From the IMG/VR virus record IMGVR_UViG_649989946_000002: 40,386 nucleotides of DNA; one strand, given 5' to 3'. Of this stretch, positions 31,940-40,386 are shown in pieces (position 1 is the stretch's first letter; each line of letters opens with the position of its first letter). The notes beneath the pieces are model-generated. The model made no database searches. It saw only the letters and a list, made by a program, of their open reading frames with translations, and was not told where the DNA came from. Source of the stretch: a virus (taxonomy: Duplodnaviria; Heunggongvirae; Uroviricota; Caudoviricetes). Position numbers and translations under genes: made by a program.

Positions 31940-33600
31940 CACTTTTGTGGGGACAGTCCACAAAACTGCCAACTTCCGCTTCTTGCTCTTAGCGGACATT
32001 AGCATAGGCTATTTACCATAACGCCTCATTACGCGCACCGCCCAGACTGACTCAGCGCGTTTCTGGCATATCCCCGGTAAAACAAGTAACAAACCACCCG
32101 AAAATGAACACCAGAAACGCGACTTAAGAATCTACCCTATGAATGGATATGCACTCAACCGAATCGATCTTGGTTTCAATCTATTTTATCGGGATCAGGC
32201 TTCTTTTTAGGTAACTTCGGGGGCTTAACTTGCTGATGACTTTGCGTTCGGCGCGTAAGCCAGGGATGGTCAGCTTTAGATTTAACATAGTATTTTGAGC
32301 GTAAATCAATACGGGCATTATCCACTCGTTCATGGACACTCTTTTCATCATCCAGTGGTATAGGCTCCGGGCCATCAACATACTTTTCCCAGCCCAGCGC
32401 TTTCCCGTCATACAGAACGTTAATTTCACCGTCAAAGTTCTCACATACAGTAACAACCGAATGCCTAAGTCGATATCCCCGGCCCTCACTGCGTACCTGA
32501 AACGCACTGCTTTTGTACTGGAAAGTGAGATTTTTAGACAGAACGCGCTTCGCCTGTAGGCTGAAGATATAACCCAGTTCCTCTTCAGAATGGTGCACAT
32601 CAAGATGAGCATTATCAGTAGTACGAGGCGACGTAGCGAACCGGTTGTTATAGGCTTCAATAAAGGTCGGCAACCATGCATTTGCTGTTTCAATATCACT
32701 GATATTCTGAAGCCGCATTTCTTTGACCAGCCTGTCCTGTAGTGTCTGATTGGCGCGCTCTACCCGCCCTTTTGCCTGCGGGCTGTTGGCATGGATTGGC
32801 TCGATGCCCTGTGTCTTTATCGCACGAGTGAACTGGGTCAGCTCACCTTCCCGCTCTGGGTTATTTACCCTGAATATACTGTGTCTATCAGAGTAGAGAG
32901 CGAGCGGTACGCCATGATCATTAAGGTAACCCCGGAGGGTTTCCATGTAAGCCCGGGTTGTTTCAGCAGGCACAAAACGCAACGCCATCAACGCACTGGT
33001 GGCATCATCAATGAAAACGATCAGTGTACATCTGGGGCCTCGATTTTCAAACCAGTCATGAGGTGAGCCATCAATCTGGATCAGTTCACCGTAAGATGGT
33101 CGTCGCATGCGGCGTTGATATATACGGGCAATTTTACGACGGCGTTCACGCCATAACCCCTCTTCTATCATCCACTTTCTGAGAGTTTCAACGGATAAAG
33201 ATAAACCGTGTATCTCGCGCAATTTTTCGCACGCAAACGTAGGTCCAAAATCAGCGTAACGGCCTTTGAGGAGTGAAATTACTGTTGCTCTGAATTCAGT
33301 AGAAAAGGAATTATTAGGATGCTTTCCACGTCGGTGGGAAACCAGACCAGAAGGCCCTTCATTTCTATACCGTTGCACCAGACGTTTAACCTGCCGAATA
33401 GAAATGCCAATGCGTGCCGCAGCTTGTTCCTGAGTAATATGTCGATTAATTGACTCCTGAATAATCTGAAGTCGGTGGAGTTCCTTATGACTCATCGTAA
33501 CAGTCTCTTTGATCATGAAAAATCCCCCAGAGAATTGTCTGGGGACATTTTAGAATGGTTCAAAGGGGACATTACAGCTTGGTGTTAACAATAGCCTGCT
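31940..33600 (-). mobile_element. Second IS element (rve/DDE transposase, IS481- or ISNCY-like); ends not resolved
   Basis: Single large transposase ORF flanked by non-coding DNA; GGGGACA-containing motifs near both flanks; no terminal inverted repeats could be confirmed by eye. Confidence 0.35.
32176..33516 (-). CDS. DDE-type (integrase-core, rve) transposase with N-terminal HTH
   Basis: 446-aa ORF: HTH (ITQEQAAARIGISIRQVKRLVQRY), DDE core (LIQIDGSPHDW..., LIVFIDDATS..., ALYSDRHSIF..., RVERANQTLQDRLVKEMR). Confidence 0.85.
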   Translation of the reverse strand: MIKETVTMSHKELHRLQIIQESINRHITQEQAAARIGISIRQVKRLVQRYRNEGPSGLVSHRRGKHPNNSFSTEFRATVISLLKGRYADFGPTFACEKLREIHGLSLSVETLRKWMIEEGLWRERRRKIARIYQRRMRRPSYGELIQIDGSPHDWFENRGPRCTLIVFIDDATSALMALRFVPAETTRAYMETLRGYLNDHGVPLALYSDRHSIFRVNNPEREGELTQFTRAIKTQGIEPIHANSPQAKGRVERANQTLQDRLVKEMRLQNISDIETANAWLPTFIEAYNNRFATSPRTTDNAHLDVHHSEEELGYIFSLQAKRVLSKNLTFQYKSSAFQVRSEGRGYRLRHSVVTVCENFDGEINVLYDGKALGWEKYVDGPEPIPLDDEKSVHERVDNARIDLRSKYYVKSKADHPWLTRRTQSHQQVKPPKLPKKKPDPDKID

Positions 33601-33969
33601 TCTCCTTGCCTTCCGGCACTCGCGACAGATTATGTTTAGACGACTGTCGTAGCGACGTATTTCTCCGTCAGGTAATGACCAGATAAGGTCCGGATCAACC
33701 ACAGCAGGTTTCTTCACCTTTGCCCTCGAGAGTTTTTTGCGGGCGTTTTGCCAGTCCTTACGCGCCTGTTCAGACGGGAATAACCCGTAACCAGAGCTGT
33801 ATACATCGCCACTGGCAACCAGCTCTCTGGCCAGAACGCTCATCAGATATCTTGTTGCCCCAGTTTTAGCTTCCAGTTGTCGTAACGTCTCGCGCCCACT
33901 CTGGCGTACGAGTTCCACCACCTGCCCTTTAATTTTTTCCCGCTCTTCTTGTGTAAAAACTTTTGCCAC
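33550..33969 (-). CDS. Hypothetical replication-module protein (position of a helicase-loader gene); C-terminus may be altered by the adjacent IS
   Basis: 139-aa ORF MAKVFTQEEREKIKGQVVELVRQSGRETLRQLEAKTGATRYLMSVLARELVASGDVY...; last codons lie in the IS-proximal sequence. Confidence 0.4.
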   Translation of the reverse strand: MAKVFTQEEREKIKGQVVELVRQSGRETLRQLEAKTGATRYLMSVLARELVASGDVYSSGYGLFPSEQARKDWQNARKKLSRAKVKKPAVVDPDLIWSLPDGEIRRYDSRLNIICRECRKARRSRLLLTPSCNVPFEPF

Positions 33970-34009: not shown

Positions 34010-35029
34010 TTATCCCCTGAAACCAGGCGGAATTTCTGTATCCGGTTCAGAAATATGATTCACACAACGCTGTACAGGTGAACGTCCCAGGCGGATGACC
34101 AGTTCGTCCCATTTTTCGCGGAGTTTTGACGGGCTCATGATGTTTTTTACCCAGAATTGATCTCGCTGTACCCGACCAAACATTTCGCAAATTTGTCTGT
34201 GGCTTCTGCCATCCAGCATCCGCATTGTGCGCACGTCATTGGCCCAGGCTGTCCAGTTAGGCTCTTTTGGTCGCATGATCTCTCCATCGTCGCTGGCAGC
34301 CTGTTCGTAAAGGTTCACGATCCGCCCCCAAATCCACTGCGCACACGCCAAATCCTCCCTGCTACCCCACTGGCGTTTTTTCGCACTAAACACAACCGCG
34401 TCGGGGTTCCGGGTTAAAAAATCCTGTTCAGCGGTCTGCGGGTCCGGTTGCGAAGCTTCCGGACGAAAAGTGTTTTTATTCTCTGTAGTAATCTCTGTTG
34501 TATTCTCTGTAAGATCATCAGGCCATTTTGACCCGATGACATTGGGTCGTTTTGAACCAATGGAGCGTTTCATTTTGACCTCTTCCATCGTGTCATTTTG
34601 ACCTGATGGAGCGGCGCATTTTAAACCGATGGATTCGCTCAATTTGCCACCATCTAAAAGCTCGCTCCCGTAGTTGATCGTGTAGAAATTGGTCATATCG
34701 CGCTTTGATTTATTGAGCTTTTCACAACGCAAAAGCCCCAGCGTTTTCAGACTTGCAAACGCGCGCTTTAACGTTGACTCTGACCAGAATGGGAACTGTT
34801 CCAGCCATTGTTCCGTTGTGTTGTAAATCCAGCGAACACCATCACATTCCATGCCGGAATTGGTATCTCTCAACCAGTAATGCAACTGCTGCAACACAAT
34901 GGCTTCATTTAAGCCAATCTTCATCGCAAGCTGTGTGTTTATAACCAGTGGGCGTTCAGCAAAAAGAAGGCTCATAATTCCATCCAGCTTTTTGTTGGTA
35001 TTGCTGTCGATACGCAAGCTTGAAAGCAA
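34010..35029 (-). CDS. Replication initiator, lambda O-like (replisome organiser) with internal origin iterons
   Basis: 339-aa ORF in the O position downstream of the cro-like dicC; six 23-bp iterons lie within its coding sequence; true start may be the internal Met at 34975. Confidence 0.7.
   Translation of the reverse strand: MLSSLRIDSNTNKKLDGIMSLLFAERPLVINTQLAMKIGLNEAIVLQQLHYWLRDTNSGMECDGVRWIYNTTEQWLEQFPFWSESTLKRAFASLKTLGLLRCEKLNKSKRDMTNFYTINYGSELLDGGKLSESIGLKCAAPSGQNDTMEEVKMKRSIGSKRPNVIGSKWPDDLTENTTEITTENKNTFRPEASQPDPQTAEQDFLTRNPDAVVFSAKKRQWGSREDLACAQWIWGRIVNLYEQAASDDGEIMRPKEPNWTAWANDVRTMRMLDGRSHRQICEMFGRVQRDQFWVKNIMSPSKLREKWDELVIRLGRSPVQRCVNHISEPDTEIPPGFRG
34524..34662. repeat. Origin-of-replication iterons: 6 direct repeats, 23-bp period, consensus CATTTTGACC-N-GATGGAG
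   Basis: Repeat units start at 34524, 34548, 34571, 34594, 34617 and 34640 (CATTTTGACC / CGTTTTGAAC / CATTTTAAAC / CAATTTGCCA); adjacent A/T-rich stretch with 3x TCTCTGT at 34470-34520. Confidence 0.75.
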
Positions 35030-35477
35030 TTGCTTTTTCTATAAGTTCGTCAGTTTCACGATCCACTACGGCAGGATCAGCAAAAAGCAGTCCGGACTCC
35101 ACCACATCGCCATATTCTTTGTTTAACCCGGCGATCATGCACGTGATGCTTTTTCCGTCAGTAATTTCACGATACAACCTGAAATCACTAATCCGGATAG
35201 CCTCCATAATCGCAGGCACTAGCGCCGTGAACTTTTCACGCTTATCCCTGGTATCGATAGCCTTCCAGCGTTCGAATATCTTCACTCGATTAACACCAAG
35301 CGCTCGCTGATCAACCGCGCCACCTTCATCTGTGACACGCTGAACATCGATGTTCGGGCGCTCTTTCAAAGCCCAGAATGCTTCAGTGATTAATATCGTC
35401 GCCTGCTCCTGTGTCATTCCTGGTCGACATATCCAGGCATCCAGAGCCTCACGAGCCTGTTCAGGAGTGATTTTCAT
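34956..35477 (-). CDS. Hypothetical early-region protein in the cII/YdaT position
   Basis: 173-aa ORF MKITPEQAREALDAWICRPGMTQEQATILITEAFWALKER... between dicC and the O-like gene. Confidence 0.5.
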   Translation of the reverse strand: MKITPEQAREALDAWICRPGMTQEQATILITEAFWALKERPNIDVQRVTDEGGAVDQRALGVNRVKIFERWKAIDTRDKREKFTALVPAIMEAIRISDFRLYREITDGKSITCMIAGLNKEYGDVVESGLLFADPAVVDRETDELIEKAIAFKLAYRQQYQQKAGWNYEPSFC

Positions 35478-35688
35478 TGTTCAACCGCCCCGCCCGCTTC
35501 GTCTTACGATATTCATCATAAACTTTGGGATCATACTGAAGCTCCCCGCCAGATGCCTCCTGTAGACGCATCGCGCGACCTTCAGGAACCAGTATCCCCC
35601 AAGCAGCAACACTTGCCAGCCTCACTCCTGCGGCATTGGCAAGCTTTGTTTTGCTGCCAAAAAAAGTAATTGCGTCAACTTTAAGCAT
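35461..35688 (-). CDS. dicC: Cro-like regulator DicC
   Basis: MLKVDAITFFGSKTKLANAAGVRLASVAAWGILVPEGRAMRLQEASGGELQYDPKVYDEYRKTKRAGRLNNENHS (75 aa), divergent from dicA. Confidence 0.85.
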   Translation of the reverse strand: MLKVDAITFFGSKTKLANAAGVRLASVAAWGILVPEGRAMRLQEASGGELQYDPKVYDEYRKTKRAGRLNNENHS

Positions 35689-35701
35689 CAAAGCCCCCCT
35701 C

Positions 35702-35720
35702 TTGTTAGATTTTTCTAACA
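35702..35720. promoter_or_regulatory. DicA/DicC operator palindrome in the dicC-dicA intergenic region
   Basis: TTGTTAGA-TTT-TCTAACA inverted repeat. Confidence 0.6.
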
Positions 35721-35769
35721 TTATTGTGCGCGGGATACCTAAGTCAAGAAAAATTAGAATTACCTAACT

Positions 35770-36177
35770 ATGGATACAAGAACCCTGGGCCAGCGAGTTC
35801 TGGCGCGACGAAAAGAATTACGCTTAACACAACGAGAAGCCGCGCGCCTCGCTGGAGTTGCTCACGTCACAATTTCACAATGGGAAAGAGACGAAACCCA
35901 GCCAGTCGGAAAACGATTGTTTGCTTTAGCGGATGCTCTGAAGTGCTCACCTACATGGCTAATGTTTGGTGACGAAGACAAGGCACCAGTGCCTGCACAA
36001 GAACTTCATGTGGAAACAGAGCTAACTCCCAACCACAAAGAATTGATCGAATTATTCGATGCTCTTCCATCTTCCGAGCAGGAAGCCTTGCTGTCTGAAA
36101 TGCGCGCAAGAGTAGAAAACTTCAACAAACTCTTCGAAGAAATGCTTAAAGCGCGTAAAAATAAATCAATAAAATAA
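35770..36177 (+). CDS. dicA: Repressor DicA (HTH_XRE, cI-like immunity repressor)
   Basis: 135-aa ORF MDTRTLGQRVLARRKELRLTQREAARLAGVAHVTISQWERDETQPVGKRLFALADAL... Confidence 0.95.
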   Translation: MDTRTLGQRVLARRKELRLTQREAARLAGVAHVTISQWERDETQPVGKRLFALADALKCSPTWLMFGDEDKAPVPAQELHVETELTPNHKELIELFDALPSSEQEALLSEMRARVENFNKLFEEMLKARKNKSIK

Positions 36178-37219: not shown

Positions 37220-37277
37220 TTTCTGGTGACGTTTGGCGGTATCAGTTTTACTCCGTGACTGCTCTGCCGCCCTTTTT
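37220..37277 (+). ncRNA. dicF: DicF small regulatory RNA (ftsZ/division-inhibiting sRNA) including its terminator hairpin
   Basis: TTTCTGGTGACGTTTGGCGGTATCAGTTTTACTCCGTGACTGCTCTGCCGCCCTTTTT matches the DicF sequence as recalled; between ydfC and dicB. Confidence 0.85.
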
Positions 37278-38890: not shown

Positions 38891-40386
38891 CACTGAACAA
38901 ATATATCTGCGAATACCTGACGACAAAGGGCGTGTTTGAGAATGAAGAAACAGACCTGGGCACTGTTGATGTTCTCCAGTCATCAGAAACACAAACTGAT
39001 GCAGTGGAAACTGAGGTATCTGATATCCCAAAAAATGAAACCGCGCCGGAAGCTGAACCATCTGTAGAGCGTGAGGGGCCGTTCTATTTCCTCTTCGCAG
39101 ATAAGGACGGAGAAAAATACGGTCGCGCAAACAAACTCTCTGGTCTGGATAAGGCACTGGCTGCTGGCGCCACTGAAATCACAAAAGAAGAATATTTTGC
39201 CCGAAAAAATGGCACATACACGGGCTTACCGCAAAATGTAGATACCGCTGAAGATTCAGAACAACCAGAGCCGATAAAAGTTACCGCTGACGAAGTAAAC
39301 AAAATTATGCAGGCAGCCAATATCAGCCAGCCTGACGCCGATAAGTTGCTTGCTGCATCACGTGGTGAATTTGTTGAAGGGATTAGTGACCCGAATGATC
39401 CGAAATGGGTTAAGGGGCTCCAGACCCGCGATTCTGTGAACCAGAACCAGCATGAATCGGAACGGAACTACCAAAAAGCGGAACAAAACAGTCCAAATGC
39501 GTTACAAAACGAGCCAGAAACGAAACAGCCTGAACCAGTAGCGCAACAGGAAGTGGAAAAAGTCTGCACCGCCTGCGGTCAGACCGGCGGCGGCAACTGC
39601 CCTGATTGTGGCGCGGTGATGGGCGACGCAACATACCAAGAAACATTCGATGAAGAGTATCAGGTTGAAGTTCAGGAAGATGATCCGGAGGAAATGGAAG
39701 GCGCTGAACATCCACACAAGGAGAACACTGGCGGCAATCAGCATCACAATAGCGATAATGAAACTGGCGAGACGGCAGATCACCCAATTAAGGTGAACGG
39801 TCATCACGAAATCACATCCACCAGCAGGACGTGTGACCATCTAATGATCGACCTTGAAACCATGGGAAAAAATCCTGATGCCCCGATCATCTCAATAGGT
39901 GCAATATTTTTCGATCCGCAAACCGGAGATATGGGACCGGAATTTAGTAAGACTATCGATCTGGAAACTGCTGGCGGAGTCATTGATCGGGACACCATTA
40001 AATGGTGGCTTAAGCAATCACGCGAAGCGCAATCTGCCATTATGACCGATGAAATCCCGTTAGATGATGCACTGTTACAATTGCGAGAATTTATCGACGA
40101 AAACTCCGGTGAATTTTTTGTTCAGGTTTGGGGAAATGGAGCCAACTTCGACAACACGATTTTGCGCCGTTCATACGAACGGCAGGGGATCCCCTGCCCG
40201 TGGCGTTACTACAACGATCGCGATGTACGCACAATCGTTGAGCTGGGGAAAGCCATAGACTTCGATGCCAGAACGGCTATTCCATTCGAAGGTGAGCGCC
40301 ATAATGCACTTGATGACGCCCGTTACCAGGCAAAATACGTTTCAGTTATCTGGCAAAAACTGATCCCGAGTCAGGCTGATTCTTAA
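38797..40386 (+). CDS. C-terminal part of the same protein, carrying a DnaQ-like DEDDh 3'-5' exonuclease domain
   Basis: Motifs LMIDLETMG (Exo I), VWGNGANFD (Exo II), HNALDDARYQAKY (Exo III); frame open upstream of the Met back through the A-run at 38743-38748. Confidence 0.7.
   Translation: MRKQPDALRYDRQTIFGLVRERPIDIHKDPVALNKYICEYLTTKGVFENEETDLGTVDVLQSSETQTDAVETEVSDIPKNETAPEAEPSVEREGPFYFLFADKDGEKYGRANKLSGLDKALAAGATEITKEEYFARKNGTYTGLPQNVDTAEDSEQPEPIKVTADEVNKIMQAANISQPDADKLLAASRGEFVEGISDPNDPKWVKGLQTRDSVNQNQHESERNYQKAEQNSPNALQNEPETKQPEPVAQQEVEKVCTACGQTGGGNCPDCGAVMGDATYQETFDEEYQVEVQEDDPEEMEGAEHPHKENTGGNQHHNSDNETGETADHPIKVNGHHEITSTSRTCDHLMIDLETMGKNPDAPIISIGAIFFDPQTGDMGPEFSKTIDLETAGGVIDRDTIKWWLKQSREAQSAIMTDEIPLDDALLQLREFIDENSGEFFVQVWGNGANFDNTILRRSYERQGIPCPWRYYNDRDVRTIVELGKAIDFDARTAIPFEGERHNALDDARYQAKYVSVIWQKLIPSQADS

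Follow-up and report, generated by a model that had tools for sequence, protein, structure and literature searches.

A putative iteron-type replication origin within the initiator gene of an mEp460-like lambdoid prophage

Do tandem repeats that lie within a protein-coding gene serve the DNA or the encoded protein, and can they mark a replication origin? This question is raised by the O-like replication initiator gene of the IMG/VR virus record IMGVR_UViG_649989946_000002, a stretch of 40,386 nucleotides (nt) that is referred to here as the window. The gene occupies positions 34010–35029 of the minus strand in the list of open reading frames (ORFs) and matches PHROG 391, 'replication initiation O-like', with an E value of 5e-93. 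Its product has 339 amino acids (aa) if translation starts at the TTG at 35029, and 321 aa if it starts at the ATG at 34975, from which relatives are annotated. A preliminary description of this DNA had proposed that six direct repeats with strict 23 base-pair (bp) periodicity, together with an A/T-rich stretch containing three TCTCTGT repeats, give the gene the architecture of the lambda origin with a specificity of its own. In this study, we analysed the repeats, their conservation and the domains of the initiator. As judged from sequence comparison, the iterons and the adjoining element very probably constitute the origin of vegetative replication in an mEp460-like lambdoid prophage, placed in the middle of the initiator gene, which codes for the linker.

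Six 23-bp units are present at 34516–34654 inside the O-like coding sequence, as revealed by a repeat finder (23-bp families across 34516–34645), by autocorrelation and by counting the exact core. The autocorrelation of 34500–34670 peaks at lags 23, 46 and 69 (0.49, 0.49 and 0.42, respectively; background approximately 0.25), and the array is the second-strongest periodicity of the whole window (z 7.6). The periodicity is strict for five units in 23-bp steps and is broken by the last step of 24 bp (successive spacings 23, 23, 23, 23 and 24). The unit consensus, CATCGGGTCAAAATGACCCGATG, is a palindrome around an A-tract, which the individual units match at 15–20 of 23 positions, and the dyad-symmetric form of each unit is arm / CAAAWTG / arm (GGGTCAAAATGACCC). 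On the minus strand, unit 1 (GATGGTGGCAAATTGAGCGAATC; 34632–34654) is weak, with 15/23 matches, and lies in the 23-nt register; unit 2 (CATCGGTTTAAAATGCGCCGCTC; 34609–34631) has 18/23 and unit 4 (GAAGAGGTCAAAATGAAACGCTC; 34563–34585) has 16/23 with an exact GGTCAAAATG core. These three units are degenerate, whereas units 3, 5 and 6 (34608, 34562 and 34538) are good palindromes. Unit 3 (CATCAGGTCAAAATGACACGATG; 34586–34608) is strong, with 20/23 matches, 16 self-complementary positions and the full pattern with one mismatch; unit 5 (CATTGGTTCAAAACGACCCAATG; 34540–34562) has 18/23 matches and 16 self-complementary positions; and unit 6 (CATCGGGTCAAAATGGCCTGATG; 34516–34538), likewise strong and palindromic, has 20/23 matches and the full pattern without mismatch, and adjoins the putative unwinding element. 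Within 40 kb there are exactly three copies of the core GGTCAAAATG, all of them in the array, and the full iteron pattern finds matches in the array alone, with 0 expected by chance.

Downstream of the iterons in the sense of the gene lies the ACAGAGA element (TCTTACAGAGAATACAACAGAGATTACTACAGAGAATAAAAACAC; 34470–34514, minus strand), a putative DNA-unwinding or loading region called by Tandem Repeats Finder (TRF) and by the repeat finder. It consists of three 12-bp ACAGAGAWTAMW repeats encoding the peptide LTENTTEITTEN; the repeat finder places the 12-bp family at 34477–34512, and TRF also calls a 12-bp array. The three TCTCTGT repeats of the preliminary description are these ACAGAGA repeats read on the other strand, so that they follow the iterons in gene sense only and precede them on the plus strand. 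The element is 69% A+T and its sense strand is 64% purine; no other 41-mer of the gene is less stable, and in the window the element ranks at the 98.8th percentile in this respect. In all of 32 phage records that carry it, it lies within the replication-initiator gene. Similarity to Klebsiella phages stops inside it, and such a mosaic boundary fits a module made up of the N-terminal domain, the iterons and the element.

Several further observations concern this element. The 12-bp repeat, ACAGAGAWTAC, is near-identical across initiator genes that differ in their iterons, N-terminal domains and C-terminal domains, and ranges from Enterobacterales to Anoxybacillus, Staphylococcus and Limosilactobacillus, with a further occurrence in a Xanthomonas phage. 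Junctions between mosaic phages fall within the element. Its bottom strand carries a CTG every 12 nt, and it is pure speculation to link this CTG to primase recognition.

The conservation of the region indicates what the repeats are for. The centres of the six iterons fall in reading frames 2, 1, 0, 2, 1 and 1, that is, in all three frames, and encode different peptides; the repeats are therefore not a peptide repeat. The preliminary description had named two outcomes that would count against it, namely that formal analysis might find no repeats or that they might be a coincidence of coding; both were checked, and repeats were found, with their units in three frames. Conservation by codon position was measured in an indel-free alignment of 12 enterobacterial relatives. 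The segment encoding the N-terminal winged-helix domain (N-domain; aa 1–107 from the ATG; 34655–34975, minus strand), which presumably binds the iterons, has the usual coding signature (0.90, 0.95 and 0.70 at codon positions 1, 2 and 3), whereas the iteron region gives 0.89, 0.92 and 0.88. The difference at third positions, 0.88 versus 0.70, is significant (Mann–Whitney p 5e-8), and third-position conservation rises to 0.98 in the ACAGAGA element, while at the amino-acid level the linker is less conserved than the N-domain (0.80 versus 0.88). Constraint thus acts on the DNA and not on the encoded peptide. The 23-bp unit is conserved over its whole length: core and spacer differ by 0.02, which is not significant, as shifted registers reach 0.034. 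Codon choice in the element is equally restricted. Among 59 relatives, ACA or ACT makes up 99% of its Thr codons and GAG 98% of its Glu codons, compared with 45% and 44%, respectively, in the remainder of these genes; the codons of the element are fixed in Firmicutes too, despite a different codon usage. Since GAG is preferred over the more A/T-rich GAA, the element appears to be selected for its sequence and not for low stability alone.

The same architecture recurs widely. A scan of one genome per species yielded 263 relatives of the N-domain, 78 of which were examined; a scan of viral contigs gave near-identical Escherichia coli copies only. In most full-length genes among the 78, the strongest periodicity of the ORF has a lag of 22–24 and lies at nt ~300–400, directly after the N-domain, and beyond the array there are usually two to four copies of ACAGAGA. 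Array-bearing relatives come from Enterobacterales, Pseudomonas, Comamonas, Gilliamella, a Desulfuromonas metagenome-assembled genome, Anoxybacillus, Staphylococcus and Limosilactobacillus. In every array that was set in register (~60 species-level relatives from several phyla) the arm / CAAAWTG / arm form is found with a constant centre, and the arms are lineage-specific, both sides changing together: GGT/ACC in E. coli, Xenorhabdus and Staphylococcus; GGG/CCC and GTG/CAC in Pantoea, Pseudomonas and Comamonas; GGA/TCC in Pantoea and Mixta; GAT/ATC in Limosilactobacillus and Brevibacillus; and TAT/ATA in the relatives L161 and L166. Six symmetric arm types are what would be expected of the sites of a dimeric DNA-binding protein, and are meaningless for a peptide. 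Over 292 units, uncorrected for shared ancestry, complementarity between the arms amounts to 2.25 of 4 positions, compared with 1.68 ± 0.05 for shuffled partners. Arm similarity also follows N-domain identity (rho 0.34, reached by 0 of 2000 permutations, again with shared ancestry uncorrected).

Of 5,426 complete E. coli genomes, 1,957 (36%) carry the module formed by the N-domain and the iterons (34470–34975), in up to four copies per genome, and RefSeq labels the gene 'hypothetical protein'. Many database copies (proteins P0001–P0120) are 110–190-aa 'partial' or frameshifted versions that end in the region of the origin, which is consistent with assembly breaks at the iterons or at the shared ACAGAGA element where several prophages are present.

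The initiator itself combines parts of different kinds. Its N-domain is predicted to adopt a winged-helix fold that is closest to the RepA_N and DnaD initiators and similar to that of initiators whose binding repeats lie within the genes encoding them, and it has no Pfam match to RepA_N (PF06970) or Phage_rep_org_N. Nor does it match Phage_rep_O (PF04492), even at E ≤ 10, whereas lambda O itself scores 5.7e-36. An hhalign comparison with the lambda O N-domain found no similarity (probability 0.05%), and one with the Stx-type O N-domain gave an E value of 0.011 (probability 3.7%). An N-domain that is not Phage_rep_O, arms unlike those of lambda and an arm type that tracks the N-domain together point to the distinct initiator specificity that had been suggested. 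The C-terminal half does resemble lambda O (BLASTP, 34% identity over 148 aa, E 3e-28), and its lambda-O-like domain, at approximately aa 207–315 of the 339-aa reading (34085–34411, minus strand), matches PHROGs 2357 and 277.

Following this domain is a C-terminal tail of 20 aa (QRCVNHISEPDTEIPPGFRG; 34013–34072, minus strand), a near-copy of the C-terminus of host DnaT that corresponds to positions 160–179 of NCBIfam NF002770. Its identity to the final 20 residues of E. coli K-12 DnaT is 70% (E 1e-7), and its 63-nt coding segment is common to other O types. The initiator as a whole scores 16 bits against the NCBIfam DnaT model, the cutoff being 201; only the last 20 residues align, and the N-terminal oligomerization and C-terminal single-stranded DNA-binding domains of DnaT are absent. 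Apart from this match to the tail, Pfam and NCBIfam yielded no informative hit for the initiator. RAST-style labels of 'Primosomal protein I' on these phage genes are attributable to the tail only. No gene of the P, DnaC or DnaB type follows the initiator in the window, in mEp460_ev081, HannyBb and mEp460_4F5, in the Klebsiella phages or in Pantoea AH07. A tail of the form G[FW][RKN]x was found in 22 of the 78 relatives, on at least two different C-terminal domains (lambda-O-like and Phg_2220_C). A loader, helicase or primase gene adjoins the initiator in none of these 22, compared with 22 of the 56 tail-less relatives, where the adjoining genes are IstB/DnaC-like (16), lambda P (two), Toprim (three) and DnaB (one). 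This anticorrelation is significant by Fisher's exact test (p 1.9e-4, uncorrected for phylogeny), and we hypothesize that the DnaT-like tail substitutes for a phage loader. The mechanism by which DnaT recruits DnaB/DnaC has been stated to be unknown (PMC11087952; PMC13377028); the DnaT papers are silent on the extreme C-terminal tail, and a literature search retrieved no report of such a tail on phage initiators.

We infer that the protein binds the iterons, that the element unwinds, that the tail recruits the helicase and that the locus is active as an origin. Dimers of the N-terminal winged-helix domain would bind the dyad-symmetric 23-bp iterons, most strongly the two or three nearest to the element, and the bound initiator would build an O-some-like nucleoprotein complex in which the DNA is bent or wrapped. 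Stress from this complex would open the adjacent low-stability ACAGAGA element. The C-terminal part, comprising the lambda-O-like domain and the tail copied from DnaT, would then bring in the host helicase in place of phage P, DnaC or DnaB, and rightward transcription from pR would pass through the origin, as in lambda. In lambdoid phages, unwinding in vitro needs no more than the two iterons next to the A/T tract, and the distal ones bind weakly (PMC7466680), a behaviour that the strong proximal and weak distal units described here fit.

More tentatively, such solo initiators might recruit host DnaB–DnaC, or another component of the replisome, through the ...PPGFRG sequence copied from DnaT, and the ACAGAGA repeats, instead of being a passive A/T tract, might be recognized by sequence as a site of unwinding or loading by a conserved factor; we regard this combination as possible but doubtful. 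If the first of these holds, the PPGFRG peptide would also be the determinant by which DnaT recruits its partners in replication restart. A literature search returned nothing relevant on mEp460 replication, the ACAGAGA/TENTTE motif, PPGFRG, 'initiator-solo' or DnaT-like phage proteins.

Several points weigh against the identification of the locus as an origin of this kind. Half of the six iteron units are degenerate, which leaves about three strong sites. The tract called A/T-rich in the preliminary description is, at 69% A+T, moderately rather than extremely so, and its GAG codons imply that it is not selected simply for easy melting. The co-variation statistics ignore phylogeny. Short homologues of 225–250 aa in Bacillus and Neobacillus (L133, L138, L139, L145, L146, L150 and L162) have no detectable 22–24-bp array. 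Recruitment of the helicase must be assumed, as there is no loader gene. Finally, a literature search found no experimental work on this initiator family, although Weigel & Seitz (2006) lay outside that search. The short Bacillus and Neobacillus homologues also have no detectable ACAGAGA repeats and are followed by a conserved ORF of ~113 aa; their origin may be located elsewhere.

Other explanations of the repeats have to be weighed against these findings. The units could be binding sites of the same protein that serve mainly in regulation or incompatibility (autoregulation, handcuffing and copy control, or exclusion), with initiation taking place elsewhere or otherwise, for example by recombination-dependent or transcription-primed replication. 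Plasmid iterons commonly have control as well as origin roles, and the degeneracy of half of the units and the lack of a dedicated loader gene would also suit such a function. Handcuffing in the Rep_3 family has been summarized (PMC5703833). We nevertheless consider a mainly regulatory array unlikely, because it is coupled downstream to the low-stability ACAGAGA element, which is the arrangement of an origin and not of an operator, because the site is far from the promoter and because the homologous in-gene architectures of lambda and pSK41 are proven origins (PMC7466680; PMC5703833). The early region also offers no alternative origin-like feature, and searches at the origin for clusters of DnaA boxes, internal promoters and Rfam families were negative.

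It is very unlikely that a repetitive or low-complexity linker peptide (SIGxK..., TENTTEITTEN) accounts for the periodicity and the ACAGAGA repeats as a side effect of its coding, or that the 40-bp element is merely a recombination joint, with no origin function in either case. The 12-bp element is indeed in frame and encodes a repeated TExT peptide, and mosaic boundaries do coincide with the element, which acts as a shared patch of homology. This account is contradicted by the placement of the 23-bp units in three frames with different peptides, by third positions that are as conserved as first and second ones in DNA that is better conserved than its peptide, by Thr and Glu codons of the element that are fixed even in Firmicutes and by the symmetrical change of the arms. 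Decay of the module in a defective prophage, with an insertion sequence (IS) inserted, the loader lost and the features real but non-functional here, is extremely improbable. An IS transposase gene does lie immediately beyond the Ren-like gene, the 3' end of which differs from that of relatives, and no P or DnaC gene is present. The initiator ORF, by contrast, is intact, with 99.7% nucleotide identity to its counterpart in the isolated phage mEp460_ev081 and 97.6% identity to that in the plaque-forming phage HannyBb, and both phages share the loader-less gene order; since this order is found in 22 of 22 tail-bearing relatives, it reflects design and not decay. An origin within the initiator gene thus remains the preferred reading.

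The genomic setting is that of a lambdoid prophage encoded for the most part on the minus strand, with ORFs for tail, head and terminase at low coordinates and an early region at 33.5–38 kb in lambda order (pR, cro, cII-like, O). A cI-like helix-turn-helix (HTH) repressor is encoded at 35770–36177 on the plus strand. On the minus strand, a pR-like sigma-70 promoter (35720–35747; 10/12 consensus matches, a consensus match only) precedes a P22-Cro-like gene (35461–35721), a cII/YdaT-like gene (34956–35477) and the initiator gene. The initiator gene is 97–98% identical to the HannyBb and PhiR42_1 genes, which are annotated 'replication initiation O-like protein' or 'DNA replication protein O'. 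Where lambda has P, a DUF977/Ren-like gene, which does not encode a helicase loader, is found (33550–33969, minus strand; Pfam DUF977, E 4e-22; PHROG 142, 'Ren-like'), and directly beyond it is the IS transposase gene (32176–33516, minus strand; 446 aa, with HTH_28/HTH_29 and rve_3 domains). In mEp460_ev081 and HannyBb, too, the initiator gene is followed by the DUF977/Ren-like gene. The C-terminus of the Ren-like protein departs from its relatives after ...CRECRK, which suggests that the IS insertion clipped the 3' end of the gene; terminal inverted repeats of the IS were looked for and were not found. In mEp460_ev081 an ORF of ~450 aa occupies the IS-equivalent region in the opposite orientation. 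In the leftward early region there is a full-length match to the Rfam DicF small RNA (76.7 bits; 37221–37272, plus strand), and related phages carry dicB-like genes near the equivalent position. The strongest periodicity of the window (39411–39550, plus strand, lag 21) lies inside a large ORF of the exonuclease region; it was rejected as a DNA element, as it is a low-complexity protein stretch rich in Gln, Glu and Asn and was not called as a tandem repeat by TRF.

An origin within the initiator gene, with iterons and an unwinding tract, is a textbook architecture, so that to see it confirmed in this prophage is no surprise. Although the design is familiar, the present version of it, very common among E. 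coli, has apparently gone without a detailed description. Annotation of the origin and the initiator would improve prophage annotation and help to predict incompatibility or exclusion between lambdoid phages. The arm variants, paired with N-domain variants, offer a natural series for studies of initiator–DNA specificity, and the loader-less initiators with a DnaT tail offer a testable handle on the recruitment of DnaB/DnaC by DnaT.

The locus may be compared with several known systems. In Firmicute replisome organizers of the SPP1 G38P type, the initiator gene holds its own repeats together with an A/T-rich region. Bacillales and Lactobacillales relatives of the N-domain, with 22-bp iterons followed by ACAGAGA-like repeats, would resemble them in this respect. 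The resemblance to DnaT is confined to the last 20 residues, beyond which nothing can be aligned to the initiator. The overall plan is that of the lambda origin, as the preliminary description had held. Dyad iterons lie in the middle of the initiator gene with a low-stability element downstream, and relatives conserve this plan at the DNA level. The lambda iterons lie at codons 117–145 of 299, compared with 108–154 of 321 here, and lambda and the six-iteron Stx-phage variants have 4–6 dyad-symmetric iterons with 20–24-bp spacing and an A-tract centre, like the present array. The four lambda iterons (ATCCCTCAAAACGAGGGA and variants; TCCCTCAAAACGAGGGA, CCCTCAAATTGGGGG) occupy lambda positions 39034–39118, and an A-rich tract of low stability lies downstream of them in gene sense, as here. 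The iteron centres are alike (CAAAACG/CAAATTG, or CAAAAYG, in lambda and CAAAATG/CAAATTG here), for which homology is not claimed, whereas the arm sequences differ. Lambda has a generic A/T unwinding tract, in contrast to the sequence-conserved 12-bp repeat of this locus, and a Phage_rep_O N-domain with a P gene, neither of which is present here, where a DnaT-like C-terminal tail is found instead. The likeness to lambda thus extends to the homologous C-terminal half of the initiator, and stops short of a full O/P system, as a P-type partner is missing. The three-part layout is the same as that of the pSK41 Rep (RepA_N; PDB entry 4pta), to which, with DnaD/DnaB, the N-terminal winged-helix fold is also compared. 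In this protein of ~320 aa the N-terminal domain binds repeats central in its own gene, the origin DNA encodes the linker and the C-terminal domain is host-specific (PMC5703833). The centre of its binding site is A/T-rich and bent, and the N-terminal domain and origin have been swapped as a module of ~500 bp in pPR9 (PMC5703833). The pSK41 Rep has a DnaG-binding C-terminal domain, whereas the initiator described here combines a lambda-O-like C-terminal domain with an ACAGAGA element in a Gram-negative lambdoid phage.

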